Below are positions 1 to 16,627 of a DNA stretch of 16,856 nt, one piece after another (position 1 is the stretch's first letter; the number at the start of each line of letters is the position of its first letter). The stretch lies in the NCBI GenBank assembly GCA_033764315.1, contig JANRJA010000064.1:1-16856 (forward strand), read 5' to 3'. The position numbers and the translations under genes were made by a program. The notes under the pieces were generated by a model, which saw nothing but the letters and a program-made list of their open reading frames with translations, had not been told where the DNA came from and ran no database searches. This DNA is from Oculatellaceae cyanobacterium bins.114 (lineage in GTDB: Bacteria > Cyanobacteriota > Cyanobacteriia > Elainellales > Elainellaceae).

Positions 1-717
1 CAAACAAACCTTTTCTGAGAGCTTTGACACCCTGTACTATTATCGGCACGTCAGCCCAGAGCAGATTCAACAAGTTCTACAAGCCCATAGCGAAGGCACG
101 AGTTTGGGAGGGATTAGCCGCATTACAGGACTGGCTTACAATACCGTTGTCAGTATTGTTCGCTCAGCGGGTGCCAAAGCTTTGCTGATTCACAACGACC
201 AGGTTAAGCAGATAGAAACCGAGGAGGTCAGTAACAATGTCTTGCGGATGAGTTAACGGTGGGAGATTGTTGGATTGCCATCACGTTAGCGAATTCGAGT
301 GGGTTAATTTTGGCAGCACGGGTGGGGAAGCATACCGACGCATTGATTGAGGAGTTGGTGGTTAGGACTGAGGGTAAAACCCATTGCAAGCGATGGAATA
401 GCGATGATTGGGACGGCTATGAACGGGTTCTACCACCTGAAATAGAGCATTACATCGGCAAAGACAAGACTCAACGACTGGAGCGAACCAATGGCATCAT
501 GCAACAACAAACGGGACGATGGCATCGACAGCAGAACAAGTTTGGCAAACTGTGGGAGCAGACGAAAGTGACAACCCGACTAGTGGTGAGTTATTTCAAT
601 TGGATTTGGTCGCATAGTCGCTTGAGGATAACGGCAGACCAACGGGCAGGATTAGCTGAGCATCCTTGGAGTTGGGATGAGCTTATTACTTATTCCGCAA
701 TAGTTTGACGCACTACC
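1..717 (+). mobile_element. IS1-family insertion sequence, right part (left end outside window), probably defective
   Basis: Two transposase frames: 2..256 (KQTFSESFDTLYYYRHVS...HSEGTSLGGISRITGLAYNTVVSIVR, HTH-like) and the DDE half ending at 708 (GDCWIAITLA, WNSDDWDGYER, TQRLERTNG). They are followed by ...GACGCACTACC at 707-717, whose reverse complement GGTAGTGCGTC resembles IS1-type terminal IRs (GGTrrTG). Confidence 0.8.
2..708 (+). pseudogene. IS1-family transposase, disrupted at the frameshift junction
   Basis: The upstream frame reads ...ETEEVS-NNVLRMS* (stop 254-256), and the -1 frame reads QCLADELTVGDCW... The DEMWSFV-type first catalytic Asp motif and the A-rich slippery run expected between EEVS and this point are both missing. 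Confidence 0.65.
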
Positions 718-766
718 GGTTTGTGCATATCCAAATCAATGTAGATACTTCAATTCTTGGGAAAGC

Positions 767-1048
767 CTACCATTGAGGGATACAGGGATCTGGCTCATCA
801 TCTTGCCACACCCCAAAACATGGACCCGCTACGTACCAAAGACTCCGGAATAAACTGCGGTCCCATCTGCAACAATAGTCCCGGTGCCACAAGAGAAACC
901 CTGTACACATTGTACGAGTTTCACAATTTGGAAACTGCTGAAGAATAATTGCTCCCCCATCAGGAGATAAATTGCTAGTTGCCATCGAACTATAGTAGTT
1001 TCTCGTTTGATAGAGGGAGGCTTCTCCAGCGAAATTTGGCATACTCAT
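767..1048 (-). CDS. Small Cys/Trp-rich protein with conserved PxFxxExSLYxT leader (putative precursor C, 93 aa)
   Basis: ATG at 1048. A GAGGT RBS overlaps the upstream gene's TAG, with a 14-nt gap between the genes. Leader MSMPNFAGEASLYQTRNYY aligns without gaps to the two upstream genes. The C-terminal ~55 aa contain 6 Cys and 5 Trp. Confidence 0.85.
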   Translation of the reverse strand: MSMPNFAGEASLYQTRNYYSSMATSNLSPDGGAIILQQFPNCETRTMCTGFLLWHRDYCCRWDRSLFRSLWYVAGPCFGVWQDDEPDPCIPQW

Positions 1049-1062
1049 TGTTTTATTTACCT

Positions 1063-1677
1063 CTAGCTAAAGCAACCATATTCAGATGTTCCATTAACAA
1101 GCTTGCACTCTATACCATCCCGGCAACAGATTTGACCACCACAGCAGGATTTACCCGGCGGACACATTGCAGACTCACAGCACACTCCTGGCGGGCAACA
1201 ACCCTCACTGGTACAACTCCACCCCGCTTCGCAACAGCGATTATTGCAGATTGTACGACCCGGTAGGCAACAGCCATCTGGGAGGCAAGTGCCAAAGCAA
1301 ATGCGATTATTACAGACTGCATTTGAAGGGGCACACCCATCTAGAGTACATACTTCATCTAGTTGACAACATTGACCTTCACACCTTGCTTGACCCGATG
1401 GGCACTTATCATACACATCGCACTTACGGCTACAGTTAAAACGAACTTGTATTCGGCATGACTCATCAGCGCAGGGAAAACTGCTGATGCAATCCTGATA
1501 GCATTTCCATGGATTGAGGATATCTGTATATCGACTACCAATGGAAGATTTAACAAAGTCATTGATCGAGAGCGCGGGATATAGGGTTTCGTTCGCTTGA
1601 GCGAATTTCACACCCATACGATAGTGTCTAGTAGTCTTGTAAAGGGATGTTTCCGCATCGAATCCTGGTAATCTCAT
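1063..1677 (-). CDS. Cys-rich repeat protein with conserved leader (putative precursor B, 204 aa, 32 Cys)
   Basis: Start reassigned from TTG 1719 to ATG 1677, which has a GAGG RBS upstream (ACGAGGTTATTACATG) and puts the leader MRLPGFDAETSLYKTTRHY at residue 1. It is followed by a CxxxC...CxxxC module and CC-containing repeats. Confidence 0.88.
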   Translation of the reverse strand: MRLPGFDAETSLYKTTRHYRMGVKFAQANETLYPALSINDFVKSSIGSRYTDILNPWKCYQDCISSFPCADESCRIQVRFNCSRKCDVYDKCPSGQARCEGQCCQLDEVCTLDGCAPSNAVCNNRICFGTCLPDGCCLPGRTICNNRCCEAGWSCTSEGCCPPGVCCESAMCPPGKSCCGGQICCRDGIECKLVNGTSEYGCFS

Positions 1678-1706
1678 GTAATAACCTCGTCGTTGTATTT
1701 GCCCAG

Positions 1707-2435
1707 TTATGCAAGGCAATTGACTTTACAGCCAAGGCGACCTCCTCCCAAGTCACAGCATTCAAGTCCTGGTTGACAACACCCACCATCACAAGGAACA
1801 CCTAAGCCCAATTTACGGCAAATTTTTGCTGCATCAGAGGAACTAGGAGGGGGAGCTGGCGGTTTAGTTGTACCTGGAGGAAGTAAATCACTCGGAAATT
1901 CACTACAGAAGCCGTCTCGACAGAAGTAATTTGGCGGGCAGCATGTACCACCGCAACAACTATATCCTTTGGCGCAGCATTTACCCTCACAGACGCTTTG
2001 ATCGCTTGGACAACAGCCCTGGCGTGAATTAGGGTCGTACCTATCTACACATTGCTCATTTGACTCACAACAGCCTTCACCCGGCTCGAAGGGGTTAAGA
2101 GGACCACAAATCTTAGGACAGCAATCATCGATTGTGCATAAGGCTTGTTCCCTCAGCAAATTCAGGTTACAGGCTGCAAGGACTCCCCCAGCGCAAACAG
2201 GGTAGAAAGGACCCGATGCTATGCAACCTATCCCACCTATCGCAAGGCACCCTCCCATATTTCTTAAAGCGATCTCTGAACATCGGTTACACTTTGCTTG
2301 GGTTTCTGAACTAGGAAAGTAGGCAGCAACAACTAATTGAGCGTTTGGCGAACCATTAAACTCAGTACTTGAAGAACGATAATTGTTGCTCGTCTTGTAT
2401 AACGAAGCTTTGGCTGTAAACGTAGGTATGCTCAT
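1707..2435 (-). CDS. Cys-rich repeat protein with conserved leader (putative precursor A, 242 aa, 32 Cys)
   Basis: ATGA overlap with the upstream stop, and GGAGG 6 nt upstream. Leader MSIPTFTAKASLYKTSNNY, then a Gly-rich hydrophobic Cys hairpin, CC repeats, a Pro-rich linker (PPGTTKPPAPPPSSS) and a terminal 8-Cys module. Confidence 0.88.
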   Translation of the reverse strand: MSIPTFTAKASLYKTSNNYRSSSTEFNGSPNAQLVVAAYFPSSETQAKCNRCSEIALRNMGGCLAIGGIGCIASGPFYPVCAGGVLAACNLNLLREQALCTIDDCCPKICGPLNPFEPGEGCCESNEQCVDRYDPNSRQGCCPSDQSVCEGKCCAKGYSCCGGTCCPPNYFCRDGFCSEFPSDLLPPGTTKPPAPPPSSSDAAKICRKLGLGVPCDGGCCQPGLECCDLGGGRLGCKVNCLA

Positions 2436-3355
2436 CTCATACCTCCAATCTCGCGATCATAGTAGGGTGACATCTTGGTCACCAGGAACGGAAACTCTTC
2501 AGTCACATCAACGCGCACACAAAACTTTTCTGTAAAATCGGTGTTGCGGTTGGTATAAGCGAAAATGACATCGACGATTTTGCGAGTACTGCTTAATGGT
2601 GACAGGCGCACTTCCACCCCGGTCAATGAAAAATCCAGCGCAAATCTCTCAGCAGCCTTGGCATAAATGACAGGATAGCGCATTGCTAAGTAGTTTAAGG
2701 CTCGGTGTTCGTCGGTTGCACCTGCATTATCCGTTAGCTGCATAATTCTATTGAACAGTTCCTCGGCTGCTGGACGAAACTGTTCAGGATTAATTTCTTC
2801 TGGATTAGGAATAGCGTCAATGAGCGCATCTCGATTAAAGGAATAGATTTGATCGAAAAGGATAATGGGCACCATCAAGCCATTACACATTTCTGGTGGG
2901 GCAATGGGACCGCGCATCCCAATTACAACATTAATATTATTAGAGTCAGGTGTGGGACGGATGGAATCTACTAATAGATCGATGTCCGCTGGATCGCGTG
3001 GCATCAGTAAGTAAGTTTCTAGCCCTTGAATGCTCAATACCCAACATAGTTGGCGTACAAGATAGCGGTTTTGGCGTTCAGACAGAACTGCTTGAAAAGT
3101 CTGTTGGTCAGTTCTCCCGGCAGTATCTATTCGTCCTGTTGCCTGAGCAAATTCCTTCTCGGCAGCAAGATTTGGAAAACGGGCTTCAATTTGCCCAATA
3201 GCGTAGACATAGGAAAGCTTTCGCATGTCATTAGGACTTACGTCTTCCTTCGCTGCTGAACCGCCACACGTTGCACAACCTCCTTGTGGAACAATAACCT
3301 TATTTGTCAGAGCCTCCAGCAAGGAAGCATCATTCATTTCATATTGCTCGTTCAT
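2432..3355 (-). CDS. Stand-alone cyanobactin protease PatA/PatG C-terminal domain (DUF) protein
   Basis: Motifs YVYAIGQIEARFP, DNAGATDEHRALNYLAMRY and VDVIFAY...RVDVTEEFPFLV resemble the PatA/PatG C-terminal DUF (VYALG.IGYDF, N.G....RALNF, DV.L.F...IDVSD..P). AAGGA RBS upstream. N-terminal VIVPQGGCATC. Confidence 0.82.
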   Translation of the reverse strand: MNEQYEMNDASLLEALTNKVIVPQGGCATCGGSAAKEDVSPNDMRKLSYVYAIGQIEARFPNLAAEKEFAQATGRIDTAGRTDQQTFQAVLSERQNRYLVRQLCWVLSIQGLETYLLMPRDPADIDLLVDSIRPTPDSNNINVVIGMRGPIAPPEMCNGLMVPIILFDQIYSFNRDALIDAIPNPEEINPEQFRPAAEELFNRIMQLTDNAGATDEHRALNYLAMRYPVIYAKAAERFALDFSLTGVEVRLSPLSSTRKIVDVIFAYTNRNTDFTEKFCVRVDVTEEFPFLVTKMSPYYDREIGGMR

Positions 3356-3403
3356 AGTTATTTATCCTTGAAAGCAGTTTTCTTTGACCCACAAAATGAA
3401 GGT

Positions 3404-3417
3404 TTCTGATATCAGAA
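3404..3417. repeat. Perfect 14-bp palindrome TTCTGATATCAGAA in the protease-DUF intergenic gap
   Basis: Read directly from the sequence; function unknown. Confidence 0.6.
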
Positions 3418-3433
3418 GTAGCATCACCTGTAG

Positions 3434-4324
3434 TTATTCTTTCTTCATTTTTTGCCCATGGGCTTTTAACAGTGTTTGATAGGCAGCAGCAGCATCCATC
3501 ACAGGTGGAACGACCGAGGTTCGTCGTAGCGTGTTCACTTGGGTGATAGCAAGTTTAATTTGTGCGGCGGTTGCGTTAGGAAATTCAGACCATAACAATG
3601 CTATTGCTCCAGTCACGAACGGTACCGCGACACTTGTTCCCCCAAGTGTCAATGATTGACCTTCGGAACCAAGGCTAGTAATGCTGTCGCCTGGTGCACT
3701 TATTCCCCACCTACCAAGCGAACTGCCCAAATTCGATTGGTTCATCGGTTGACCACGTAGATTACATGCAACGACTGGAATGATCCAGGGGTGGCGAGTG
3801 ATAGCGGAGCTTCCAAGAGTACCTTGATTTCCCGCTGCTGCGACTATAAGCACCCCACGTCTAATTGCCTGATTGAGTGCCTCTTCTAATGCTTGTGCTC
3901 CTTTGGTAAAGGGTTGCACAAGAGCAAGGCTCAAGTTGATTACTCGTGCGCCCGCCTCAATGCAGTCTCTGATCGCTGCTGCAAGTTCCAGAGGCGTTGC
4001 ACTCGGCATGTGTTCGCGTCCAGAAGTTGTCTCGGCAAAAATAGGTCGTATTAGAAGGGTACAGTTAGGGCAAATGGCAGGTGCGGAGGACTGTCGCTTT
4101 GCAAATAGAATTCCGGCTACAAAGGTTCCGTGTTGACATGCTGTACTACTGGATTGAGTGCATTTGGATGCATGACTTCCGGGAAAGACTCGCCTATATT
4201 TATCCTCCAAATCTGCATGTTGGGTAACAACAGGTCCATCAATAAGTCCTATCGCTACCTCAGGGCTACCACTGGTGAGTTCCATCAACGCTGTGAGCTT
4301 AACTAATTCCAAAGGGAATATCAC
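3434..4324 (-). CDS. Subtilisin-like S8 serine peptidase, PatA/PatG (cyanobactin maturation protease)-like, no signal peptide
   Basis: Catalytic residues D29 (GLIDGPV), H65 (HGTFVAG), oxyanion N166 (AAAGNQG) and S231 (GGTSVAVPFVTG). DGPV and ARVINLS motifs are as in PatA-type domains. GTG start with AAGGA RBS. No signal peptide or propeptide is visible. Confidence 0.92.
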   Translation of the reverse strand: MIFPLELVKLTALMELTSGSPEVAIGLIDGPVVTQHADLEDKYRRVFPGSHASKCTQSSSTACQHGTFVAGILFAKRQSSAPAICPNCTLLIRPIFAETTSGREHMPSATPLELAAAIRDCIEAGARVINLSLALVQPFTKGAQALEEALNQAIRRGVLIVAAAGNQGTLGSSAITRHPWIIPVVACNLRGQPMNQSNLGSSLGRWGISAPGDSITSLGSEGQSLTLGGTSVAVPFVTGAIALLWSEFPNATAAQIKLAITQVNTLRRTSVVPPVMDAAAAYQTLLKAHGQKMKKE

Positions 4325-4379
4325 GATATATTTTCCTTGCTAGATTTGCATCCAACTAATAGCTAGCATCACCAGCGAT

Positions 4380-4411
4380 AGGAAAATTGAAACGAAATTG
4401 GGAATTTTCCT
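4380..4411. promoter_or_regulatory. Inverted repeat AGGAAAATT-N14-AATTTTCCT upstream of the protease operon (possible operator)
   Basis: 9-bp perfect arms, ~55 nt upstream of the GTG at 4324, in the divergent intergenic region. The regulatory role is inferred. Confidence 0.35.
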
Positions 4412-4502
4412 TCTGTCTGAGTTACGTGATGGTTAGGCTCAATCACTCAAGTTGCACCAACGGCAACATCCCAGTTGTAATCCTTCAATGCCACAAGAGC
4501 AA

Positions 4503-4518
4503 TTCGACATTTGACCCA
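4503..4518 (+). repeat. 16-bp direct repeat TTCGACATTTGACCCA, copy 1
   Basis: Identical to 5298-5313; the two copies bracket the Uma2 gene. Confidence 0.85.
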
Positions 4519-4601
4519 TACGGTTATTAATCGATCGCAACATTCAACTTGAGAAGACTTCGGTAAGCGCAACTTATACTGAAGGAACGGAGGACATTAT
4601 C

Positions 4602-5285
4602 ATGGTCAACATCCTGCCATCTCCACAAAACCTAACCACCGACACATGGGTACGCGCAACCTGGGAGGAGTTTTTGGCAGCGTGCGATCGCCTTGACCTT
4701 CCTCTAGACGATCATCCTGCTTGGGAGAAAGCACGGTGTTACTACGATGCGGGTTGGATGAGGATTGAAGCTGTGGGAATTGGTTCAGCTCATGGGCAGG
4801 ATAATTCGATACTGGCAGCCGTAGTGACGCTCTATGGAACGCTGAGAAACATTCCTCATATTGCGTTTACCAATGCTAGTTTTCGCCAAGCAGGGGAACG
4901 AGAGTGTCAACCCGATCTGGCTTATTACGTTGGATCTGGGGTGCGGCGCCCTCCCAAGAATAATCAGCCTGTAGATGTTAATGAATATGGTGCGCCAACG
5001 CTGGCGATCGAAATCGCTTCTACCACACTAAATGACGATCTAGGGCAAAAGCGGTTATTGTACGAGCGTTTAGGGGTACGGGAATATTGGGTTGTGGATG
5101 TGCAAAATGCGATCGTGATTGCCTTTGCAGTAGCCGCGGGAGGCAGTCGGCAAATTCAAGTATCCCAAGTGCTACCAGGGTTGGCAATGAAGACCGTAGA
5201 GGAGGCTCTACAGCACAGCCAGACGACTGATGATACAGAGGTCAACCGCTGGCTGATGCAGCAGTTTCAAGCCATCAGTGAGTAG
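4602..5285 (+). CDS. Uma2/DUF820 family PD-(D/E)xK putative endonuclease
   Basis: Motifs QPDLAYY, PTLAIEIASTT and DLGQKRLLYERLGVREYWVVD are typical of cyanobacterial Uma2 proteins. GGAGG RBS at 4589-4593. Confidence 0.92.
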   Translation: MVNILPSPQNLTTDTWVRATWEEFLAACDRLDLPLDDHPAWEKARCYYDAGWMRIEAVGIGSAHGQDNSILAAVVTLYGTLRNIPHIAFTNASFRQAGERECQPDLAYYVGSGVRRPPKNNQPVDVNEYGAPTLAIEIASTTLNDDLGQKRLLYERLGVREYWVVDVQNAIVIAFAVAAGGSRQIQVSQVLPGLAMKTVEEALQHSQTTDDTEVNRWLMQQFQAISE

Positions 5286-5355: not shown

Positions 5356-6287
5356 GAGTCCATTTGACATCTTTATAATGGAGGGTGAAAGCATCTACCC
5401 CCTTGACTTCAGTTGCTATGGCATATTCCAGCAGTCTCACCGATGCAGAATGGGAAATTCTTGAACCCCTGTTGCCTCAGATATTACCGCAGAAGAAACG
5501 GACAAGACCTTGCGATTGGACAAAGCGACAAATCTTAGATGGCATCTTCTACCAACTCAAGAATGGCTGTAATTGGGAGGATCTCCCCAAAGACTTGCCG
5601 CCCTACTCAACCGTTTACTGGCACTATAAACAGTGGCGAGCCGCAGGTGCAATCGAGCTACTGATGCAGACGTTACATGAGCAAGTGCGAGAACAGGTAA
5701 AAAAAAGCCCAAGTGGACGACGTTAATCATCATTGATTCACAAGCGGTGAAGAACACGTGTAATGCAGGTGTGGATTCCAAAGGATTTTGTTTCTACAAG
5801 GCAACCAATGGAATCAAGCGACATCTAGCCGTTGATACGCTTGGTTTTCCCTTCTTTACCCACTGCACGCCTGCCAACGTGACTGATGATGCGGGACTGG
5901 TTGAGATGCTGACGCTCAACATCGATTATTTCAAGGCAAAGCCAGTTAATATTCCCAAAATTACAATCTTGCTAGACCATGGATATCACGTTGACTATTT
6001 GACCAATGCGCTTGAGCAAGTTTATCCACAAATCATGACGAAAATCCGATTTGAGTTGTCAACAAAACCCTCGAAGCAAGAGAAGGCCGAACAAGGAAAA
6101 TCTGGATTTGTTCCAGCGATTGCAAGGTGGGTAATTGAACGGTCGAATGCTTGGATGGAGCGGTGTAAAATCCTGGTCAAGAACTTTGAGCGGACGCTTG
6201 CCAATGCCACGACTAAACTCAACCTTTGCTTCATTCGGCTTATGATTAAGCGGCTTGCAGCCTCTCCTTAAGATCTCAAATGGGTTC
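5356..6287 (+). mobile_element. IS5-family insertion sequence (932 bp), apparently complete
   Basis: IRL GAGTCCATTTGACATCTT (5356-5373) and IRR reverse complement GAACCCATTTGAGATCTT (6270-6287) match at 15/18. TATA flanks both sides (5352-5355, 6288-6291) as a probable target duplication. Confidence 0.92.
5418..6271 (+). CDS. IS5-family transposase, two ORFs joined by a -1 frameshift
   Basis: ORF1 MAYSSSLTDAEWEILEPLLP...GCNWEDLPKDLPPYSTVYWHYKQW (ATG 5418; GTG 5385 possible). An A8G run at 5699-5707 shifts into KKPKWTTLIIIDSQAVK. DDE motifs are IDSQ, LLDHGY and RWVIERSNAW. Confidence 0.9.
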
Positions 6288-8526: not shown

Positions 8527-11500
8527 CTACCAGGGGCTACCAATCATGGTAAAGGCTGCCCAGTAATAGGGATGGGTCAGATTGCGTTCGGTGTTAGAGA
8601 TGAGTTGAGGGGGCAGGTCGATCGCTGTTCCGTCAGACACAACCAGTTGGTTGCGTTGAAGTTGTACTTTGCCTTGCAACATCGCCAACTGTGTACGACG
8701 CAATGCTTCAGCCTTGATGGGGGCTTGTCGCAATTGTTGATAAAACTCAGTCATAAAGCCCAATGTGCCATCATCACTGACATACCAAAGGCTTGCTAGA
8801 GCCGTCCTGACTCCTGCCTGTACTGCTAACCCACCAAAGCCCAGTTCGGCTTGTTCATCACCGAGTGCGGTGCGACAGGCACTTAACACCAACAAGTCTA
8901 CGGGTGGATTGTTGAGATTAAGTTGCCGAAGTTGATCAAGTTGCAGTTGTTGATTCCAGAACTGAATGTAGGAATTGCTTAGGTTGCCTTCTCGAAATTC
9001 GGCATGAGTTGCCAAATGCACAATGCGATAGGGAGTTTCTTGGCGTTGGAGTTGTAGGTTCTCTAGTGTAAAAGCATTATTGAGAAACGATCGCCCTGAC
9101 TGAGCATTGTTAGTTATGGTTAACAACTCTGTAGGAACGGCGGGTAAGTCAGGTAGCTTGTTTTGAAAATCAGAGGCACCCATCGCTAACACCTGAGCAT
9201 CACGCAAATCGGAATAGCGAGTATCAGTCAGGTTGAGACTGGGCATAAAACCAACGCTGTATTTCTCAATCAAAAACTGGTTTCCATCATGAAGTGCGGC
9301 GATCGGCAAAGAGCGCAAGCCAGCATCCATGATAAATGACAGATTTTCGATGTTTTGTGCTTGTAACTCCGCCTCAATCGGTGCAATCAACCATTGATAG
9401 AGTTGCTGAGCGGGTCGCAGATAAGCAGTGCTACGAAGCCGACTGCGATCGGTGATTTGGTTGAGCAGTTGAGTTGAGGCTTGCCTCACCTGTGCTCGTG
9501 TTACGCCGGGCACTGGATAGCGAATGGGTTCTCCCTTAGAGGTGACAATCAAGATTTCGAGTTCATCAGTGTCACTAGCCGTGGCTGACAGAGCCGTTTC
9601 ACCGCTGGGGCGATCGAGATATTGCGCAAACTGCTGAGTTGAGTTTGCTTCGCGTCCAGCAAAGTCGTTGTTAATGGGAATGTCGGCGGAAACAAACCCA
9701 ACATAGATCAACGCAGGAACAGTGCTCGTTTGAGACTGAATTTGTTGCAGGGTTGTTTGAGCCACTCCAATGTTAGGGGGTTCAATGGGGGGTTCTGTAG
9801 GGGGTGGAGGAGGTGGGGGTGGGTCTATGGTTGGGTCTTCGATCGCCTCAGTGCTGATTTGAATGTTGCCCTGAGTGAAATCGCCCTCAATTCGCTGAGG
9901 GGGGGTTAGGGTGGAAGAGCCTGTGGTGATAGCTCCAGCCGTGCCGTTGATGCTGGCATTGCCGACTACAAAAGGAATATCTCTCTGTTCGCTGCCGTCC
10001 TGTCCTGCAACGCGGATGAAGATGCGGCCTCCAGTACCACCGTTAGTGCCACCACGAGTGGAAATACTGTTGACCCCATCAAAGGTACTTAATGCGCGGA
10101 AAAATCGACCTGCAACAACGCGGACATCACCGCCATTGCCGTTACCACTGCCTTGCGTGTTGATCGATCGCACCTCTACGTCGCCAATGGGGTCTAGCTC
10201 AACCAGACCACCATTACCATTGCGTGTGGCACTGGAGTCGATCGCCCCCGTTGTAATGCGATCGCGTGCTCTCACCACAATTTCTCCGCCCCCAGTTGCC
10301 CCTGATGAAAGCAGATCCCCAATCTCTACAATTCCGCCTCTGGCAAACAAACGAATCGTGCCTCCTGTGGCAGCTTCAGAACGGGTATCGAGAATTCCAG
10401 TGGGGGAAACAGACCCAGGGGGAGGATTACCCCGTCGCACAGAACCATCACTAGAGAGGGTAATGCCAGCGGGAGCCGTAATGTTGTTGACGACAATATC
10501 ACGACCCGCACTGAAATCAATGGGAGTATTGGCTCGACCTGTAATGGTATTGTTTGCGGTAATGCCACCTTGTCCGGCGTCAATTCTAGCATTGCTGCCA
10601 ATTGTGACTGGGCTATTGAAAACAATATTGCCATCAGTGTTGATATTGGCAGCAATCTCGGTTGCCAATGCATCGATTTCTAGGCCAGCGAGACGGGCAA
10701 CTTCACCCACTCTGCCATCAAAGCGAACAGTGCCATTAGGAGCATTGACGCGAAAACCAAAATTGCCATTGATAGGACCGCCAAACGTAACCGCATTGTC
10801 GCCGCTAGCGTCGGTAGCAGTGGTTCTCAGTGTGACATTTCCTTGCAGCTCGACCCTACCAAAGTCAATGGGGTTGTTGGTCGTAAAGTCACGGCGCAAG
10901 ATGGTGGCTGTTCCACCCCGGAAACTAGCTCTGGCATTATCTTCTAAAGTCAGATTACCATCTAGAGAAACCGTACCATTGGCGGCTCGAAAGATCACTG
11001 GATCGCGAAAAGTAACATCGCCGATCGCAATGTTGCCCGTCCCCGTTTCAGAACCAATCGTGATGCGACGGAAGCCATCGGCTAACGCATTGATATCGGT
11101 TGAGGTGAGGTTGAGAGCAGCTTCATCACTGAGTGCCCCTAAGTCGCCTACTTCAATGGCTTGATCCTCTGAACTTGGTTGCAGTGTAAGGAATTGACCA
11201 CTCACCGTATCGGCTCCGCCTAACAAGTCGATTTCACTGCCGATCAGCGTAAGGGGAGTGCTGCCTGCTGTAAAAGTTTGCTCAAAGATGAGATTATTGG
11301 CTGAAAGGGTCAACCCTTCAGTGTTGCTCTCAGCAATAGTGACAGGGCTGTTAAAGCGAATATTACCGACGGCTCCCACATTTTCGGTGAGTTCGGTCGT
11401 TTGAGCCGTGACATTCAAATTGCCCAAGTCTGAACCCACCGTTCTGCCAAACCGGACAGTGCCGTTGCCTGCGTTGACGGTGAGGTTATTGGTTTCGTCT

Positions 11501-14500
11501 GAGACACTGTTGACCGCGCTAGCAAAGAGAATATTGCCACCACTGCTAAAGATGCCTACGTTATCTTCGAGGGTGGTGCGGCTTCGCAGGGTAATGTCTT
11601 GCCCTTCCGTGCTGATATCAGCATTGAGGGTGGTTGCACCAATCAGGGCGATCGCCGCATCGTCAACCCCGGTGATTCCTCCATTCACAGTAATCGAACC
11701 ATCAGGAGCTTGAATTGTGGTGGGATCTCGAAATCCTACAGTATTTACGGTAATATCGCCCCGACCGTTCTCACGGCCAATGGTGATGGAGCTGAATCCA
11801 TTTTGCAGCGAGTTCACTTCAGCTCGGCTGAGAATCAGAGCATCCTCTCTCGATTCGGCTCCCCCGATTTGAATGTTGCGGGCAGCCGTTGTGGGTTGAA
11901 TCACCAAATCACCTGTGCCAGAGACAGTGCCCCCAAAGTCGATTGTATTGCCCGTCAAGGTGAGGTTGCCGCCTGCTCCGGCGATATCACCACTGAGGCT
12001 TCCCCCATCTTCAAACACAAAGGTATCGTTGGCATCTCCCGTGGTGATATTTTCAATGTTGTTGAAGGTGAATCCATTGGGAAATGTGCTGTTGAGATTG
12101 CCTTGATCCGCCCCACTCATGATCCAAGTAGTGTCTTGGTTAAGCCCAACCAGGGTTGACCCACCCAAAATATTAATCGGATTGCTGAAGGTAACACCGG
12201 AGTTGAGTGTGACCGTTCCTGTTCCGGTTGATCGCCCAATGTTGATCTGGTTGAACCCGGATTGCAGTTGAGCCAGATCGCTATTCGTCAGGTCAAGCGT
12301 GGTTACACTGCCACTGTCGTCTCCACCCAGAGCGATCGCCTGAGACACAGTCAGCGGTCGCAGGGTCAAAATGCCACCTCTCAGCGTGCCACCTCCCAAG
12401 CCAATTTCATCGGTGGTTAGCGTCACGTCTCCACCTCCCGTGGATTCTACCGTGCCTAAACTAATTCCAGGGGTAGTCGAGGCTCCGTTCCCAGTGCCTG
12501 TAATTTGGATATCTCCAGTATTGCTACGGATGGTTGTAGCACCCACCCCAACTCCATTCGCAGTTGCTATCCCTGTCAGTTGAATGGAACCTGTCCCGGT
12601 TGCTTCGACAGAAGAAGCATTGATCTCAATGCCATCGTTGTTATCACCTGTGGCACTACTCAACCCGTTTAGAGTGATATCGCCATTGACCGTCCGGATC
12701 TGGCTATTTACAAACAGCAAAATGCCATCAATAAAAAGGCCACTGCCATTGCCCGTGCCATTTAGCTCAATTGTGCCATCACCATTCGTCTCAACCAGGG
12801 TGTCGCTGGCCAGGGTAATTCCTGTGTTGCCAGTTCCACTCCCTCTAATCGAAATGTCGCCCCCTCCAGCATTCAGCGTCGAGCTATTTAGATCAACACC
12901 TCTAACTCCATTCACATTCCCCACTGCGGCTTGAGTTCTAGGGTTAGTGCCACCCCCTAAGACGATGTCGCCACCATTGGAATTAATTTGGACACCATTC
13001 AGCGCGATCGCCCCTGCCCCATTGCTATCACGATCGGAATTGAGAATAATGTCACCGCCATTGGTGCTGAGAGAAACTTCTCCTGCAAAGATGTTGTTAT
13101 TGGCTTGCGCAGTAATACCTCCTAGCCCAGTATTGGCGGCAATACTTCCTAACGCAATATCTTGACCTGCTTGAAAAGTCAGGGTAGCGTTGCCTGCTGT
13201 GGTGATGAGGCTCCCTGTTGCGTCAATAGAACCCAGTAGCGATTGAAATACCGCCGGATCGTTAAAGGTAACAGTCCCTCCTAACGTCAAAGTGCCGCTG
13301 GCAGTTTGAATGAGATTGCTGTTACCAGAAATAGTGCCGTTGGTGTTGATCGTTGTTCCTGTCAGGGTATTAGTTCCATTGGCTCCAGCGGTTCCCCCCA
13401 AGGAAGCTGAGCGCGAACTTAGATTGTTATTTAGGTTAATCGTGGGGGCTGTGATCAAGATGTTGCCGCTGTTTCCAGCACGGCTGCTACCCCCGTTGGC
13501 GATCGCACTAGTACTGACTGCCCCTCCAAGCGTGACTGTTCCAGTGGTGGTGCTAATATCAATGGTTCCAGCATTGCCTACGCGATCGCCTGCTCCCACT
13601 GAAGTTGCTTCTGCGGTCACACCTCCAGTAATATTCACATCACCCAACGGTGCTCTAACAGTGATATTGCCCGCGTTGCCAACATTTCCAAAATAACTGA
13701 GGGCACTCGTAGTCAAGCTACTAGCATTGATGCCCCCGGTTGCTGCTTCTAAAAAAATATTGCCCGCATTGGGAGAACCTCCCGTGTAGATCAAGGCGTC
13801 AACAGCCCCCAAATTGAGGCTGTCTCCCAAAATAGTAATGTTGCCTCCAGTCCCTGTAATGACTCCGAGATTGGGAGTCGCTGGCACATACCCTGTGCTA
13901 ATCGTGCCAGCGGTGGTGTTGACGATGCCTTCAGTGCTGGTGATGCTGATGGCGCGACCAGGGTTAGAGATGTTGCCTGTTGTGATGTCAGCTAGGGCTT
14001 GGAGGGCGATCGTGGCGTTATCAGTTCCGGTGATGGTGCCGCCTGTGGTGTTGATCGATCCTGCCGGAGCACGGAATGTGACAGGGTCATTGAAGGTGAC
14101 ATCGCCTCCTAGAGTAATCGTTCCACTACCATTTGCTCGACCAATCGTGATAGAACTAAATCCATTGCCAAGTGTAGCGAGATCTGTAGCTAACAAATCA
14201 AAGGTTCCTACACCACTGTCGGCTGCTCCATTGAGGGCGATCGCTGTTGTAGGGGTAAAGGGTTGTAGCTGTATTTGTCCTAGACTTCTAACAGAATTAG
14301 CCCCCCCTAATAAGTTGATTTCGTCACTCGTCAAAGTAATGTTACCTGTCCCAACTTGGTCAATGCCAGGAACTGAGACGCTGTCTCTAGCATTAATCAC
14401 ACCATTCACGACAATGTTGGTGTTGGTGCCTCCTGCTTCAAGCACAACATTTCCATCAACTCCAGTACGTGAGTAAGACTCTAAACTGTTACTCAAAATG

Positions 14501-16548
14501 TTGCCGTTCGCAGTTGTTAGAGTAATCGCACCACCCGGTCCGTTGTTAAACCCATACGACTGTAATGTATTAGTCGAAATATTTCCTGTTCCCGTAACCC
14601 GTAAGGTAATACTCCCCCCTTGAGAACCTGTTGTAACTGTATTAGAAAGGGTTTGAATATTTCCGGTGATGATATTTCCTGTTGTTGTCGTAAAACTGAC
14701 TGCTCCTCCTGATCCATTCGCTGCAAATGTATTAGAAGATGCATTTGTGATACCGCCCCCGATAGCATTCAAAGTGATACTTCCAGCATTACCAAGACCA
14801 TTGTTGATAGCCGTGACTAAACTTCCGGTAGTAATAGTTCCATTGGAACTAGAAATCTGAATATTGCCGCTATTCGTCAGACTACCAACAGAATTAATGC
14901 CAGTATCAATATTGCCAACTGTAACTTGTGTCCCAGAAATTGTGATATTCCTGCCATTTGTAGTAGCGTCACCCCTGGCAACAATAGATTGGGTTGGATC
15001 CATTGAAAACGCACCCACTCCATCATTGTTGGTATCGGCAGTGAAGGTGATAGAGCCGCCGAGTCCAAAGTTGAGAGAGAGACCGTTGATAATGGAAATG
15101 TTATCTGTTGCTTCTAGAACAACATTTGCCGCTTGATTTTCGAGTGTTGTAGCGTTGATGGTGATGTCACCTGGCAAGTCAGTCGCAAAAATATCAGGGA
15201 GTGCTGCCCCTACACCCGCAGTATCAGGGGCAGTAGAAATAGTGATATTAGTCGGGTCAAGCAACAATGTTCCCAGTTGCCCGTTAATAGCCGTGACATT
15301 CACCAGACCATCAAACAATAAATTTTGTGCGCCTGACACTTCGACAAAACCGCCATTTCCTGAGAGGGTACCCCCTTGAGCCGAAATCGTCCCTACAAAG
15401 CGAGTAGTGTCATCTGCCCAGACAATGACTCGTCCGCCATTGCCATTGGTTAGCGCATTGGCTTGAATGGAGGAGTCTTGACTGACAACTGTGCGAGAGG
15501 CATTGAACACACTACCCTGTCCTTGATAGTCGCCGCCAATCCGAATTGTGCCGCCGCTGTTGGTTCCAGAGGCAATGATTTGGGAAGCAAGCACGCCAAC
15601 GCGATCGCCCAATATAGCGACACTTCCCCCCACGTCTCCAGAGACATCCACTATGCCAGAGGCGATCGCTGTTCCTGCGCTCGTGGAAATAGTCGTATTC
15701 GTATTCGTGAGTTGTACCGTACCATCGGGGTTTACCGTCAGCCCAGTCGGCTCCTCAACATTGCCCCCGGTTAACAATTCAGGAAGTGATAGAGGAGTAA
15801 AAGGTAATGCATTTGGGGTAGAGCCAGTTGCAGTCGTTTCTAGTTCCAAGCTCAGCAATAGCCCTTCTTGGCGGACTCGGACTCGGTTTTCTCCTGACAC
15901 AGCGGCAATGGTGACTGCCCCCTCCGGAGCAGAGAGCGTACCTGTGTTGATTACGGTTCCACCCAGCAACATCAAGCTTTCGCCAGTGGCGACTGCGAGA
16001 TCTGCCGCGTTGACTAAGGAACCAGGCTGAGCCGTGGTAAAGGCAAACTGATCGGGATTGCCGACTAGGTTGGCGTAATCATTAGAGCCGATCGCGCTGA
16101 ACCAGGTGTTGCCAAAACCAATGCCGGTTGCGGTTGTGGCGGTAAAAGAAGCGGGCAAATCGAGACGAGCGTTTGCGCCAAACAAAATCCCTGCGGGATT
16201 GATCAAATATAGGTTAGAGTTGCCCCCAGTGATTTGCAACAAGCCATTGATTACTGAGGCATCGCCCCCGGTAACTCGACCCAGAATATTTTGAATGTGT
16301 GGATTAGAGAGAAAAGTAGCAATCTCTCCGGCAGTCAACCCAAACTGCTCAAAACTATGAAATAGATTTTGCCCATCACGCGATAACGTGCCACCCTGGA
16401 TGTTGTACTGATCACCCCTGTGATTAATTTGTGTATTGGTGCCATCAGGCGCGGCTGTAACCTGGGCGTTAGCAGGGCTGATATAAGCGAATGCTCCAAT
16501 GGGAGTCAAAATTAGTGACAATACAATTTTTGTCAAGCAACGTTGCAT
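8527..16548 (-). CDS. Filamentous haemagglutinin-family (TpsA-like) exoprotein with C-terminal CHAT (caspase-like) domain, ~2673 aa
   Basis: Probable start ATG 16548 (GGGAG RBS 7 nt upstream) gives a signal peptide MQRCLTKIVLSLILTPIGAFAYISPANA|QV. TPS/haemagglutination-domain motifs NLFHSFEQF, NILGRVTGG and NLYLINPAGILFG. Long G/T/N-rich beta-helix, then a poly-Pro linker. CHAT motifs HLATHAEF, LLVLSACRTALG, ASLWYVSD and HPYYWAAFTMIGSPW. Confidence 0.93.
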   Translation of the reverse strand: MQRCLTKIVLSLILTPIGAFAYISPANAQVTAAPDGTNTQINHRGDQYNIQGGTLSRDGQNLFHSFEQFGLTAGEIATFLSNPHIQNILGRVTGGDASVINGLLQITGGNSNLYLINPAGILFGANARLDLPASFTATTATGIGFGNTWFSAIGSNDYANLVGNPDQFAFTTAQPGSLVNAADLAVATGESLMLLGGTVINTGTLSAPEGAVTIAAVSGENRVRVRQEGLLLSLELETTATGSTPNALPFTPLSLPELLTGGNVEEPTGLTVNPDGTVQLTNTNTTISTSAGTAIASGIVDVSGDVGGSVAILGDRVGVLASQIIASGTNSGGTIRIGGDYQGQGSVFNASRTVVSQDSSIQANALTNGNGGRVIVWADDTTRFVGTISAQGGTLSGNGGFVEVSGAQNLLFDGLVNVTAINGQLGTLLLDPTNITISTAPDTAGVGAALPDIFATDLPGDITINATTLENQAANVVLEATDNISIINGLSLNFGLGGSITFTADTNNDGVGAFSMDPTQSIVARGDATTNGRNITISGTQVTVGNIDTGINSVGSLTNSGNIQISSSNGTITTGSLVTAINNGLGNAGSITLNAIGGGITNASSNTFAANGSGGAVSFTTTTGNIITGNIQTLSNTVTTGSQGGSITLRVTGTGNISTNTLQSYGFNNGPGGAITLTTANGNILSNSLESYSRTGVDGNVVLEAGGTNTNIVVNGVINARDSVSVPGIDQVGTGNITLTSDEINLLGGANSVRSLGQIQLQPFTPTTAIALNGAADSGVGTFDLLATDLATLGNGFSSITIGRANGSGTITLGGDVTFNDPVTFRAPAGSINTTGGTITGTDNATIALQALADITTGNISNPGRAISITSTEGIVNTTAGTISTGYVPATPNLGVITGTGGNITILGDSLNLGAVDALIYTGGSPNAGNIFLEAATGGINASSLTTSALSYFGNVGNAGNITVRAPLGDVNITGGVTAEATSVGAGDRVGNAGTIDISTTTGTVTLGGAVSTSAIANGGSSRAGNSGNILITAPTINLNNNLSSRSASLGGTAGANGTNTLTGTTINTNGTISGNSNLIQTASGTLTLGGTVTFNDPAVFQSLLGSIDATGSLITTAGNATLTFQAGQDIALGSIAANTGLGGITAQANNNIFAGEVSLSTNGGDIILNSDRDSNGAGAIALNGVQINSNGGDIVLGGGTNPRTQAAVGNVNGVRGVDLNSSTLNAGGGDISIRGSGTGNTGITLASDTLVETNGDGTIELNGTGNGSGLFIDGILLFVNSQIRTVNGDITLNGLSSATGDNNDGIEINASSVEATGTGSIQLTGIATANGVGVGATTIRSNTGDIQITGTGNGASTTPGISLGTVESTGGGDVTLTTDEIGLGGGTLRGGILTLRPLTVSQAIALGGDDSGSVTTLDLTNSDLAQLQSGFNQINIGRSTGTGTVTLNSGVTFSNPINILGGSTLVGLNQDTTWIMSGADQGNLNSTFPNGFTFNNIENITTGDANDTFVFEDGGSLSGDIAGAGGNLTLTGNTIDFGGTVSGTGDLVIQPTTAARNIQIGGAESREDALILSRAEVNSLQNGFSSITIGRENGRGDITVNTVGFRDPTTIQAPDGSITVNGGITGVDDAAIALIGATTLNADISTEGQDITLRSRTTLEDNVGIFSSGGNILFASAVNSVSDETNNLTVNAGNGTVRFGRTVGSDLGNLNVTAQTTELTENVGAVGNIRFNSPVTIAESNTEGLTLSANNLIFEQTFTAGSTPLTLIGSEIDLLGGADTVSGQFLTLQPSSEDQAIEVGDLGALSDEAALNLTSTDINALADGFRRITIGSETGTGNIAIGDVTFRDPVIFRAANGTVSLDGNLTLEDNARASFRGGTATILRRDFTTNNPIDFGRVELQGNVTLRTTATDASGDNAVTFGGPINGNFGFRVNAPNGTVRFDGRVGEVARLAGLEIDALATEIAANINTDGNIVFNSPVTIGSNARIDAGQGGITANNTITGRANTPIDFSAGRDIVVNNITAPAGITLSSDGSVRRGNPPPGSVSPTGILDTRSEAATGGTIRLFARGGIVEIGDLLSSGATGGGEIVVRARDRITTGAIDSSATRNGNGGLVELDPIGDVEVRSINTQGSGNGNGGDVRVVAGRFFRALSTFDGVNSISTRGGTNGGTGGRIFIRVAGQDGSEQRDIPFVVGNASINGTAGAITTGSSTLTPPQRIEGDFTQGNIQISTEAIEDPTIDPPPPPPPPTEPPIEPPNIGVAQTTLQQIQSQTSTVPALIYVGFVSADIPINNDFAGREANSTQQFAQYLDRPSGETALSATASDTDELEILIVTSKGEPIRYPVPGVTRAQVRQASTQLLNQITDRSRLRSTAYLRPAQQLYQWLIAPIEAELQAQNIENLSFIMDAGLRSLPIAALHDGNQFLIEKYSVGFMPSLNLTDTRYSDLRDAQVLAMGASDFQNKLPDLPAVPTELLTITNNAQSGRSFLNNAFTLENLQLQRQETPYRIVHLATHAEFREGNLSNSYIQFWNQQLQLDQLRQLNLNNPPVDLLVLSACRTALGDEQAELGFGGLAVQAGVRTALASLWYVSDDGTLGFMTEFYQQLRQAPIKAEALRRTQLAMLQGKVQLQRNQLVVSDGTAIDLPPQLISNTERNLTHPYYWAAFTMIGSPW

Positions 16549-16627
16549 AACAGAACTCCCAAATTCCCAGTGATGCCAATGAGTAACTGGTTGTAACTTT
16601 ACTGTGAAATGCACCCTTCTGTGCCTA

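Follow-up and report, generated by a model that had tools for sequence, protein, structure and literature searches.

Judging from sequence, the five minus-strand genes described here rather likely form a self-contained three-part peptide-maturation module, in which a cytoplasmic PatA-like S8 protease would remove the leaders of Cys-rich precursors and a separate PatG-DUF protein would serve as an adaptor. The module is present in at least ten phyla and is very widespread yet apparently undescribed: literature searches found no paper describing it, and no entry was found in Pfam, NCBIfam or PADLOC. This agrees with the sequence-only reading of the locus, which had proposed an undescribed system.

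Results

Layout of the Operon

The window analysed is the whole 16,856-nt stretch of contig JANRJA010000064.1. The operon in it consists of five genes in the same orientation on the minus strand. These encode the PatA-like S8 protease (3434..4324, 296 aa, GTG start), a stand-alone protein consisting of PatG_D and PatG_C, referred to here as the DUF (2432..3355, 307 aa), and three Cys-rich proteins with an N-terminal motif in common, namely precursor A (1707..2435, 242 aa), precursor B (1063..1677, 204 aa counted from the ATG, with a mechanical ORF that extends upstream to a TTG at 1719) and precursor C (767..1048, 93 aa). The spacing read from the sequence is 78 nt, a 4-nt ATGA overlap of the precursor A start with the DUF stop, 29 nt and 14 nt. 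A purine-rich RBS-like stretch (GGAGG, GAGG or AAGGA) lies 7–13 nt upstream of every start. The gene coordinates, tight coupling and RBS-like stretches of the earlier reading were thereby confirmed. The operon promoter is expected in the intergenic region 4325..4601, between the S8 gene and a divergent Uma2 gene; no convincing promoter was found there, the weak consensus matches numbering 5 versus a mean of 6.0 in shuffles. Pfam and NCBIfam scans also showed IS fragments on the flanks of the locus. The window ORFs scanned contained no PatE-like motif, YcaO, prenyltransferase or transporter, which bears out what had been claimed of the window.

The S8 Protease

The 296-aa protein matches Pfam Peptidase_S8 (PF00082) at 8.9e-31. 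Its catalytic residues are D29, H65 and S231 together with the oxyanion Asn N166; across an alignment of 85 sequences, D29, H65 and N166 never vary, whilst the conservation of S231 is at least 90%. The Pfam match and these conserved residues identify the protein as a peptidase of the S8 (subtilase) family with an Asp-His-Ser triad, as had been proposed. Four further conserved Cys residues (C55, C63, C85 and C88) are specific to this S8 family. The nearest solved structures are the N-terminal cyanobactin proteases PagA/PatA (4h6v, 3zxx, 3zxy and 4h6w, 4e-30 to 2e-26), which marks the protein as a PatA-type protease domain such as the cyanobactin pathway has. The matches to subtilisin structures are weaker (~1e-18), and those to the PatG macrocyclase structures 4aks and 4h6x (~5e-15) cover residues 64–246 only. 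A PatG-type macrocyclase, i.e., a second S8 with a capping insertion, is absent: the locus has a single 296-aa S8 and no second S8 recurs across the loci compared. The PADLOC search returned only generic subtilase and IetS-type matches for S8, at 3.9e-15 and weaker. With its catalytic site intact, S8 is predicted to be an active protease of the leader-removing type. It has neither a signal peptide nor a prodomain, and an N-terminal hydrophobic segment was found in 0 of 85 sequences.

The DUF Protein

In Pfam, the 307-aa protein matches PatG_C at 1.8e-34 and PatG_D at 3.1e-34, and both PF18047 and PF18065 exceed their gathering scores (118.2 and 118.7 bits versus cutoffs of 27 and 25.9). Its AlphaFold2 model (mean pLDDT 88.1, pTM 0.81) has 4uvq as the sole significant fold match in the PDB (Foldseek E 2.8e-15, TM 0.65/0.75), and 4uvq is also matched in sequence (2e-06). 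The two Pfam domains and the 4UVQ fold confirm that a separate PatA/G-type DUF protein is encoded. In the model, residues ~45–300 fold into a compact PatG-DUF domain, and residues 1–44 are a disordered arm. No RRE (PqqD-like) domain was matched in Pfam or NCBIfam, and PADLOC gave no match for the DUF or any of the three precursors. An N-terminal hydrophobic segment was absent from the DUF in all 85 sequences (0/85).

The arm carries the motif V-I-V-P-Q-G-G-C-A-T-C-G at residues 20–31 (3263..3298, minus strand). It consists of an [I/V]-x-P-Q element, which resembles the putative cleavage motif of the precursors, and a C-x-x-C pair. In a set of 19 sequences, P23, Q24, C30 and G31 do not vary, and across 85 sequences, fusions included, the conservation of C30 is at least 90%. 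Regex searches of 70 stand-alone DUF N-termini detected a Cys pair in 39, of which 20 have P-Q as well as C-x-x-C and 19 have only C-x-x-C; by eye, a C-x-C pair can be seen in many of the remaining 31. Among the 67 fusions with a locatable DUF start, 51 keep a Cys pair in the linker.

The stand-alone DUF is the commonest form of the protein. All 8,000 of the 8,000 scored candidates were significant, giving at least 8,000 stand-alone proteins versus 88 fusions, which were counted as the longer matches. The S8 and DUF genes are indeed separate, as noted earlier, but to call them "split" is misleading, since the fusions are the minority. In different fusion proteins, the DUF lies C-terminal to S8, Gamma_PGA_hydro, Fic, GT1, alpha/beta-hydrolase or JmjC domains. 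Such varied partners, with Fic, JmjC, glycosyltransferase and hydrolase domains among them, suggest an adaptor role for the DUF. Its identity across phyla is 63–83%, and many of its polar residues are invariant (e.g., D215, R218, N221 and Y222).

The Precursor Family

Pfam holds no family for the three Cys-rich window proteins. They share the invariant residues M1, P4, F6, S11, L12, Y13, T15 and Y19. The same motif is carried by 236 ORFs in 78 other loci, which puts this common N-terminus far outside what chance would give. The resulting set of 239 precursors (236 leader-bearing ORFs in the loci plus the three in the window) has a common layout: a conserved leader of ~20 residues with the consensus M-N-M-P-G-F-T-A-E-A-S-L-Y-K-T-x-x-x-Y, then a constant-length spacer, a V/I-x-P-Q/A motif and a hypervariable Cys-rich core. 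A search with the leader profile found at least 5,797 protein clusters at 50% identity.

The boundary motif, searched for as [hydrophobic]-x-P-[QASM], occurs in 183 of the 239 precursors at position 35–39 (10th–90th percentile), with V or I at -3 in 155 of the 183; in this definition it is absent from the other 56, window precursor C included. In the motif-bearing precursors, the Cys frequency is 0.1–0.8% ahead of the motif and 5.5–13.9% beyond it, and the Cys count is even in 173 of 183 cores (binomial p = 1.6e-39). The median length is 90 aa for the precursors and ~53 aa for the cores, and 374 cores fall into 172 clusters, of which 136 are singletons. One core has a weak, sub-threshold match to NF040898, "LDCC motif putative metal-binding protein".

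With a mean hydropathy of -0.45, the N-terminus of the precursors is hydrophilic and does not look like a Sec or Tat signal; an N-terminal hydrophobic segment was found in only 1 of 239. Being free of such segments, the module components are predicted to be located in the cytoplasm. Among the 239 precursors, the cyanobactin recognition sequences RSII (G[L/V]E[A/P]S) and RSIII (AYDG) were found in 0 and 1, respectively, none of them in the window, so that no PatE-like precursor with RSII plus RSIII is present. A conserved C-terminal follower was not found in this set either, and a loose GG leader pattern occurs in 41 of the 239, none of them in the window.

Precursor A has a leader beginning with MSIPTFTAKASLYKTSNNY and matched by the leader HMM (2310-2435, minus strand), with the putative boundary after ...YFPS at residue 42. 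Its core contains 32 Cys and is related to long cores in L012, L018, L028, L033, L049, L077 and other loci. The leader of precursor B, which begins with MRLPGFDAETSLYKTTRHY and also matches the HMM (1573-1677, minus strand), would end after ...LYPA at residue 35; this core likewise contains 32 Cys, and the leader and core start recur in P0225, L012 and L049. Precursor C, whose leader begins with MSMPNFAGEASLYQTRNYY, had the top leader HMM score of the first round (48 bits). Its putative boundary lies at about residues 37–41 (...ILQQFPN), the position being uncertain, and its core of 6 Cys is a singleton without a relative among the 374 cores.

The three proteins had been read as having a shared leader and unrelated bodies. 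The shared leader stands. In core-versus-core BLAST comparisons without composition correction, precursors A and B (242 and 204 aa) have bodies that match each other and long "CCPPG"-type cores in other loci, and "unrelated" holds for the 93-aa core only. Similarly, the substrate sizes of 93–242 aa apply to the window, but proteins above 200 aa are the long tail of the family and atypical of it.

The Module across Genomes

For the comparison of neighbourhoods, 79 genome loci were used, every one of them fetched via its DUF protein. Leader-bearing ORFs were found by the leader HMM in 78 of these 79, as predicted by the earlier proposal that leader matches would co-localise with stand-alone S8 and PatG_D/PatG_C genes. 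The S8 gene is present in 68 of the 68 loci with at least 1.3 kb of upstream sequence, and the gene order likewise recurs. In the 42 fully flanked loci (at least 8 kb on either side of the DUF gene), none of the 135 leader ORFs is more than 5 kb away from the DUF gene: 124 are 0–5 kb downstream on the same strand and 11 within 5 kb upstream. The pairwise distances of S8 and DUF in the 63 loci with both genes are correlated (Mantel r = 0.75, with 0 of 2,000 permutations as high), which points to co-inheritance of the two proteins. The number of precursor genes per module ranges from one to nine.

Besides S8, DUF and precursors, no further gene recurs, no other cluster being found in more than 10 of the 79 loci. 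In these loci, no exporter, immunity gene or thiol oxidase was recurrent near the module, no recurrent ABC or C39 gene cluster (PCAT transporter) was found, and no RiPP tailoring enzyme acting on the core was recognised at the module. The cyanobactin tailoring genes (YcaO heterocyclase, oxidase, PatF prenyltransferase and PatB/PatC) were neither present in the scanned window ORFs nor recurrent in the 79 loci. The module appears to have spread horizontally. It is found mainly outside cyanobacteria, to which 2 of the 79 loci belong, and its hosts include many nitrifiers and methanotrophs in raw counts uncorrected for sampling. An AcrB/CusA-family gene is a neighbour in 8 loci, and Cus-type copper efflux genes adjoin the module in a betaproteobacterial subset of these.

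Discussion

In the mechanism that we propose, the DUF protein would be the leader-recognition or adaptor subunit and would hand the precursor to S8. We infer both cleavage and its position from the boundary statistics: S8 would cut after the P-Q/A motif, with a hydrophobic P4, Pro at P2 and Gln or Ala at P1. Leader cleavage by NisP takes place at a P-R site. The S8 leader peptidase ElxP cuts at a similar site, (D/E)(L/V)xxQ (PMC10885120). The freed core of ~30–120 residues would then fold by means of its even number of Cys, through disulfides or possibly Cys4 metal sites. The V-x-P-Q/A Cys boundary and the even Cys counts fit the original proposal that a leader is removed from disulfide- or metal-rich mini-proteins. 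Against the mechanism stand the 56 of 239 precursors that lack the motif as defined, and a neighbourhood in which no exporter or thiol oxidase recurs that would let a cytoplasmic product form disulfides or leave the cell. Hypervariable, multi-copy and horizontally mobile as they are, the cores point to a diversifying role that is extracellular or competitive, whether antimicrobial, signalling or metal-binding.

It is rather unlikely that the DUF is instead a modifying enzyme, which would make true RiPPs with some modification (e.g., on Cys) from which S8 only afterwards removes the leader. The conservation of the DUF across phyla is unusually high for a mere adaptor and would equally fit an enzyme, and its many invariant charged or polar residues and the conserved Cys pair on a flexible arm speak for the same. 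So does the only published test of a PatG-type DUF, which saw no binding to PatE, the precursor of its own pathway (PMC4259220), and which leaves simple leader binding unproven for this fold. Fusion to varied catalytic domains, however, suits a common recognition module better than a second catalyst, and the DUF has no cofactor-binding family match in Pfam or NCBIfam and a model that resembles no enzyme. Cyanobactin protease and macrocyclase domains function in vitro without the DUF, which also counts against it. A different view of the products, which we regard as unlikely, is that they are intracellular or periplasmic metal binders, metallothionein-like or copper-handling, rather than secreted disulfide-rich peptides. 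The very Cys-rich cores, the cytoplasmic appearance of all components, the adjoining Cus-type genes, the many nitrifier and methanotroph hosts in the uncorrected counts and the sub-threshold NF040898 match all lean towards it. Nevertheless, hypervariable cores and several distinct precursors per locus are not what a housekeeping metal buffer would be expected to show, Cus genes accompany the module in only a few related lineages, where the synteny could have been inherited, and even Cys counts suit disulfides no less than metal sites.

The predicted cleavage itself could be questioned, since the conserved N-terminus might be a targeting, secretion or assembly tag that is not removed, with S8 and DUF acting elsewhere or only regulating the precursors. 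The absence of an exporter gene nearby means that the N-terminus could serve as an export or recruitment signal, and the [I/V]-x-P-Q-like motif of the DUF arm means that S8 may act on the DUF protein itself. We consider this quite improbable: the N-terminus is hydrophilic and not Sec- or Tat-like, a P-Q/A motif at a fixed distance, whose P4 and P2 residues are of the subtilisin type, together with a Cys boundary is how a cleavage site is expected to look, and S8 is closest to the leader-removing PatA/PagA enzymes. Finally, both halves of the system are homologous to parts of PatA/PatG and IS fragments flank the locus, as would be the case in a decayed cyanobactin cluster whose PatA gene was split by mutation. 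This has a vanishingly small probability and is contradicted by the comparative data, namely the dominance of the stand-alone DUF and its identity across phyla, the intact S8 and DUF genes with conserved catalytic residues, the identical gene order in 68 of 68 loci and the near-absence of RSII and RSIII.

The module offers a route to the function of the long-mysterious PatG-type DUF. Tentatively, and with some doubt, this DUF may be a hitherto unrecognised class-independent leader-recognition module, a functional counterpart of the RRE, that in different lineages recruits protease, Fic, JmjC, glycosyltransferase or hydrolase domains to a single, very large family of leader-tagged, hypervariable and disulfide-rich peptides. 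In that case, the family would be the bacterial equivalent of the libraries of conotoxin- or defensin-like peptides, passed on horizontally among at least ten phyla.

Comparison with Known Systems

A conserved leader and variable core beside processing enzymes give the locus the general features of a RiPP, as far as sequence can tell. It does not group with RRE-dependent RiPPs, with double-glycine leaders served by a C39-peptidase ABC exporter, or with the anti-phage defence systems known to PADLOC.

The module resembles cyanobactin maturation in its S8, which is nearest the leader-removing PatA/PagA domain, in its partner with the PatG-DUF fold, and in the predicted cytoplasmic processing without a dedicated exporter gene; in its fused S8-DUF relatives, the domains follow one another as they do in PatA. 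It differs in that protease and DUF are on separate genes without a macrocyclase-type second S8, a PatE-like leader, RSII/RSIII sites, heterocyclase, oxidase or prenyltransferase. For TIGR03895 (PatA/PatG), with its curated cutoff of 421.05 bits, the scores of S8 (114.3 bits) and the DUF protein (30.8 bits) are far too low. Cyanobactin cores are 6–20 aa long, whereas those of the module are Cys-rich with a median of 53 aa.

With NisP and ElxP, the S8 peptidases of class I lanthipeptides, the module shares a subtilisin-like enzyme, a predicted leader removal and a short site motif in which P4 is hydrophobic and Gln or Pro stands near P1/P2. ElxP is also cytoplasmic (PMC10885120). The module departs from these systems in that it lacks LanB/LanC and any other tailoring enzyme, its leaders belong to another family, and a DUF partner gene is obligatory. 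The role proposed for the DUF, that of a non-catalytic leader-binding module, free-standing or fused to many enzymes, is like that of RRE (PqqD-like) domains, but its fold is unrelated, and the leader binding proposed here was negative for PatG-DUF with PatE (PMC4259220). The precursors resemble those of conotoxins, defensin-type peptides and bacterial Cys-rich RiPPs such as bufferins in having a conserved N-terminal region followed by a hypervariable even-Cys core, with paralogues often clustered. Those precursors carry Sec signal peptides and depend on different enzymes, which are MNIO enzymes in the case of bufferins, whereas the leader of the module is hydrophilic and its partner enzymes are S8 and PatG-DUF.

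The operon and its flanks

The sequence-only reading had proposed that a protease/DUF operon with leader-tagged Cys-rich proteins forms a maturation system. This proposal is supported at the comparative-genomic level, and the operon turns out to be a single representative of a large, mobile module that would mature leader-tagged, hypervariable, Cys-rich peptides. The five genes are located on the minus strand and encode an S8 protease (3434–4324; 296 aa, GTG start), a DUF protein (2432–3355; 307 aa) and the Cys-rich precursors A (1707–2435; 242 aa), B (1063–1677; 204 aa) and C (767–1048; 93 aa). Their tight coupling, with gaps of 78 nt, a 4-nt ATGA overlap, 29 nt and 14 nt, agreed exactly with the earlier description. 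The Pfam search found Peptidase_S8 (8.9e-31) on the 296-aa protein and both PatG_D (3.1e-34) and PatG_C (1.8e-34) on the 307-aa protein, which confirmed that the S8 and PatG-type DUF domains are placed on two separate proteins. No Pfam family was assigned to the three Cys-rich proteins of the window. The leader said to be common to them was found again, residues M1, P4, F6, S11, L12, Y13, T15 and Y19 being identical in all three. It was likewise correct that the window carries no transporter or tailoring enzyme, as judged by the Pfam/NCBIfam scan of its ORFs.

The operon is surrounded by mobile-element debris on the plus strand, namely an IS1 transposase fragment and an IS5-family transposase split into two consecutive ORFs, together with a Uma2-family gene (259–708, 4602–5285 and 5385–6271). 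This debris fits the arrival of the operon by horizontal transfer. The flanks also encode a sugar transferase of the EPS type. A further flanking gene, on the minus strand at 8527–16614, specifies a protein of 2,695 aa that begins with a TPS (two-partner secretion) domain and ends with a CHAT protease domain; it is probably unrelated to the module. Neither the Rfam scan nor the tRNA scan gave a hit in the window, and the promoter/terminator matches in it were no more numerous than in shuffled sequences. The Uma2-family gene matched the PADLOC candidate models PDC-S17 and PDC-S03.

Conservation of the module across genomes

A genome scan with the DUF protein gave 264 confirmed relatives, from which 79 loci were kept together with flanks of at most 10 kb. 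Culturable carriers among them include Methylobacter luteus (L014), Nitrosospira multiformis (L071, L075 and L076) and Edaphobacter modestus (L022). An HMM built from the three window leaders was iterated over all the ORF segments of these loci and recognized 239 leader-bearing ORFs, including the 3 of the window; the other 236 belong to the loci. The co-localization of such leaders with S8 and PatG-type DUF genes, on which the earlier proposal depended, was evident: 78 of the 79 DUF-fetched loci contained at least one leader ORF, and in the only exception (L011) the DUF gene is at the contig end. Wherever the sequence upstream of the DUF gene extends to 1.3 kb or more (68 loci), an S8 homologue was present. 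It lies nearly always directly upstream of DUF on the same strand, and downstream of it in L022, L038 and L048. Where both flanks reach 8 kb or more (42 loci), there are 135 leader ORFs in all, of which 124 are situated on the same strand 0–5 kb downstream of DUF; the other 11 are at most 5 kb upstream, and none is found beyond 5 kb.

The clustering of all larger ORFs of the loci revealed DUF (71 loci), S8 (65 loci) and the precursors, and no other recurrent neighbour gene. The next clusters comprised at most 10 loci each and corresponded to antisense artefacts, two-component systems, AcrB/CusA-CusB efflux, Ser/Thr kinases and an HD protein. No oxidase or exporter was found encoded near the module. 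The distances of S8 and DUF co-vary in the 63 loci holding both (Mantel r = 0.75, with 0 of 2,000 permutations as high).

In L013, which was the sole pump-bearing locus scanned with Pfam, an AcrB-family (CusA-like) pump and a CusB/CusF-type membrane-fusion gene (344–4881) are encoded a few kb upstream of the module. Pump homologues were detected by BLAST clustering in 8 loci, including Nitrosospira/Nitrosomonadaceae loci, with L070, L071, L075 and L076 among them. The proximity of a Cus-type pump may reflect lineage synteny or hint at a copper link.

Distribution and mobility

The 79 loci were distributed among Pseudomonadota (37), Acidobacteriota (22), Planctomycetota (5), Chloroflexota (3), Actinomycetota, Nitrospirota, Myxococcota, Cyanobacteriota and Verrucomicrobiota (2 each) and Candidatus Tectimicrobiota (1), with one locus not assigned to a phylum. 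The phyla are interleaved on the DUF tree, showing 24 label changes against a minimum of 9, it being noted that the labels were taken from the submitters' MAG titles, so that contaminated bins could give a false impression of transfer. Different phyla are united on several branches supported at 95% or more, and the DUF of the window groups apart from both cyanobacterial copies. The Brocadia MAG CAZBCT01 holds two modules, L005 and L032, the DUFs of which are in different parts of the tree.

The module was also found on plasmids of Mesorhizobium, Sinorhizobium and Streptomyces, a Tn3 transposase adjoining the Streptomyces copy. Leader-bearing Cys-rich ORFs lie directly downstream of DUF in the plasmid loci L080 (5811–6092 and 6229–6564) and L081 (5134–5547). 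In these two RefSeq plasmids (Mesorhizobium and Streptomyces), the precursor ORFs are missing from the available gene table, which is known to be incomplete, and the plasmid DUF is annotated merely as a "hypothetical protein". The phage collection yielded no DUF relative.

The S8 protease

Among solved structures, the S8 protease comes closest in sequence to PagA and PatA, the N-terminal cyanobactin proteases (4e-30 to 2e-26), while generic subtilisins are more distant (~1e-18) and the PatG macrocyclase aligns with residues 64–246 alone (~5e-15). The alignment of 85 relatives bore out the intact D29/H65/S231 triad, with D29 and H65 invariant and S231 at least 90% conserved; the oxyanion Asn N166 is invariant as well. 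An N-terminal hydrophobic segment was seen in none of the 85 S8 sequences. Judging by its sequence, the protein is an intact, cytoplasmic PatA-type enzyme.

Alignment conservation also revealed four family-conserved Cys residues, C55, C63, C85 and C88 (4061–4162, minus strand). C88 is invariant and aligns with a Cys of PagA, and the other three are each at least 90% conserved and unmatched in the aligned PagA. Close to the catalytic His, the four residues may make up a structural metal site or be joined in disulfides.

The DUF protein

The DUF protein gave a weak sequence match to the PatG-DUF crystal structure 4UVQ (2e-06). The first model, obtained from a shallow alignment of 19 sequences, was poor (mean pLDDT 41.9) and was discarded. 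An alignment of 85 sequences gave a confident model (pLDDT 88.1, pTM 0.81), and its sole significant PDB neighbour is 4UVQ (E 2.8e-15, TM 0.65/0.75; next E 0.05). None of the 85 DUF sequences contains an N-terminal hydrophobic segment. The protein atlas search with DUF returned its own family and nothing else.

Residues 1–44 of DUF are predicted to be disordered. This N-terminal arm contains [I/V]-x-P-Q and, after it, a Cys pair of the form C-x-x-C or C-x-C (C27/C30 in the window; 3263–3298, minus strand). The motif could be where self-processing takes place, could act as a pseudo-substrate, or could have a redox or metal function. It is also seen among the DUF proteins of L001–L079 and resembles the putative cleavage motif of the precursors.

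Stand-alone DUF proteins are very common, all 8,000 scored candidates being significant, and the 120 matches listed are 71–83% identical to the window DUF, its own entry excepted. Among longer proteins there were 88 fusions, most of them S8-DUF proteins of ~600 aa with 45–67% identity to the window DUF. A gene of its own is thus the usual arrangement for DUF, and a PatA-like fusion is exceptional. The linker Cys pair was retained in 51 of the 67 fusions with a locatable DUF start. In further fusions (P0122–P0124, P0146, P0149, P0188, P0205 and P0207), DUF is C-terminal to Gamma_PGA_hydro, Fic, GT1 glycosyltransferase, DUF676/alpha-beta-hydrolase or JmjC domains, as verified with Pfam. In its domain combinations, DUF behaves like a module joined to varied enzymes working on peptides or proteins.

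The precursors

Median length among the 239 precursors is 90 aa. Their leader consensus reads M-N-M-P-G-F-T-A-E-A-S-L-Y-K-T-x-x-x-Y, with P4 in 235/239, F6 in 234/239 and A8 in 233/239. An N-terminal hydrophobic segment occurs in just one of them. With a regular expression designed after inspecting the precursor sequences, a hydrophobic-x-P-[Q/A/S/M] motif was found in 183 of the 239, at residues 35–39 (10th–90th percentile). V or I occupies position -3 in 155 of these 183, and the Pro is followed by Q in 94 and by A in 62. When the sequences were aligned on the motif, the Cys frequency was 0.1–0.8% upstream and 5.5–13.9% downstream, the background in long ORFs of the same loci being 1.3%. The core has a median length of 53 aa. 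The number of Cys after the motif is even in 173 of the 183 precursors (p = 1.6e-39 versus one half), and these even counts point to disulfides or Cys4 metal sites in the cores.

The cores are hypervariable: 374 of them formed 172 clusters, 136 of which were singletons, in a permissive single-linkage BLAST clustering without composition correction that inflates the largest cluster (117 members). Several families of cores nevertheless reappear in different phyla. The core of cluster 1, ~45 aa long and ending in ...RCRANGGSDLICRFFGGLPPFTIGGLL, was found nearly unchanged in 14 loci of distant taxa (L006, L007, L013, L015, L019, L026, L030, L032 and others). The earlier claim that the bodies of the three window proteins are unrelated stood in part: it holds for the 93-aa core, which is unique in the set, and fails for the two long cores, which belong to a recurrent "CCPPG" subclass.

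A search of 1.84 billion cluster representatives with a 41-position leader profile gave 5,797 matches at E ≤ 0.001, and 202 of them reach E ≤ 1e-10. For almost every one of the 150 matches listed, the alignment begins at residue 1–4 of a small protein. None of 11 precursors (the three of the window and eight canonical ones) had a Pfam/NCBIfam match at cutoff. One core in L014 showed a weak, sub-threshold match to NF040898, "LDCC motif putative metal-binding protein".

Proposed mechanism

We propose that S8 would cut the precursor after the V/I-x-P-Q/A motif, since the motif is at a fixed distance from the leader, marks the onset of Cys, and offers a hydrophobic P4 and Pro/Gln near P1. The known S8 leader peptidase ElxP uses a hydrophobic P4 and Pro/Gln near P1 (PMC10885120). 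In the least secure step, DUF may act as a leader-recognition or scaffold subunit, because it is always present, co-inherited with S8 and recombined with other enzyme domains. The finding that PatG-DUF did not bind PatE (PMC4259220) argues against such a role, and the very high conservation of DUF would also suit a catalytic protein, which it could be. The boldest reading of a leader-recognition role would make the PatG-type DUF a new general recognition domain for a large library of disulfide-rich bacterial peptides.

Three other readings of the operon were rejected: a broken-PatA pseudogene; a defence system, for which PADLOC gave no match of DUF or the precursors and just generic subtilase and IetS-type matches of S8; and macrocyclization, as there is neither a PatG-type insertion nor a C-terminal recognition motif.

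Significance and comparison with known systems

The structure of the PatA/PatG C-terminal DUF was solved in 2014 (PMC4259220), and the domain has had no assigned function since then; a 2025 cyanobactin paper still names it DUF (PMC12639078). In the module, DUF is a separate, highly conserved protein next to a precursor family of its own, so that its role could be probed simply, with two proteins. As the huge precursor family (5,797 clusters) matched no Pfam/NCBIfam model at cutoff in any of the 11 precursors scanned, and the ORFs of two RefSeq plasmids are missing from the available gene table, a class of small Cys-rich bacterial peptides is being overlooked. The short portable leader and the two-gene processing set could serve the production of disulfide-rich mini-proteins.

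A search of the open full-text literature, in which just four papers mention the PatG DUF, found no published account of the module, which is apparently undescribed so far. The broader class, leader-guided proteolytic peptide maturation, is already known. The module is not a cyanobactin pathway, because it has no macrocyclase, no RSII/RSIII sites and no tailoring genes and because S8 and DUF score below the curated family cutoff (114 bits for S8 and 31 for DUF against 421 for the PatA/PatG family model of NCBIfam, which gave sub-threshold matches only). The earlier statement that there is no PatE-like precursor also extends to the family, with RSII in 0 and RSIII in 1 of the 239 precursors. 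The module is neither RRE-based nor a double-glycine/PCAT system. It would work in the manner of leader removal in cyanobactins or lanthipeptides.
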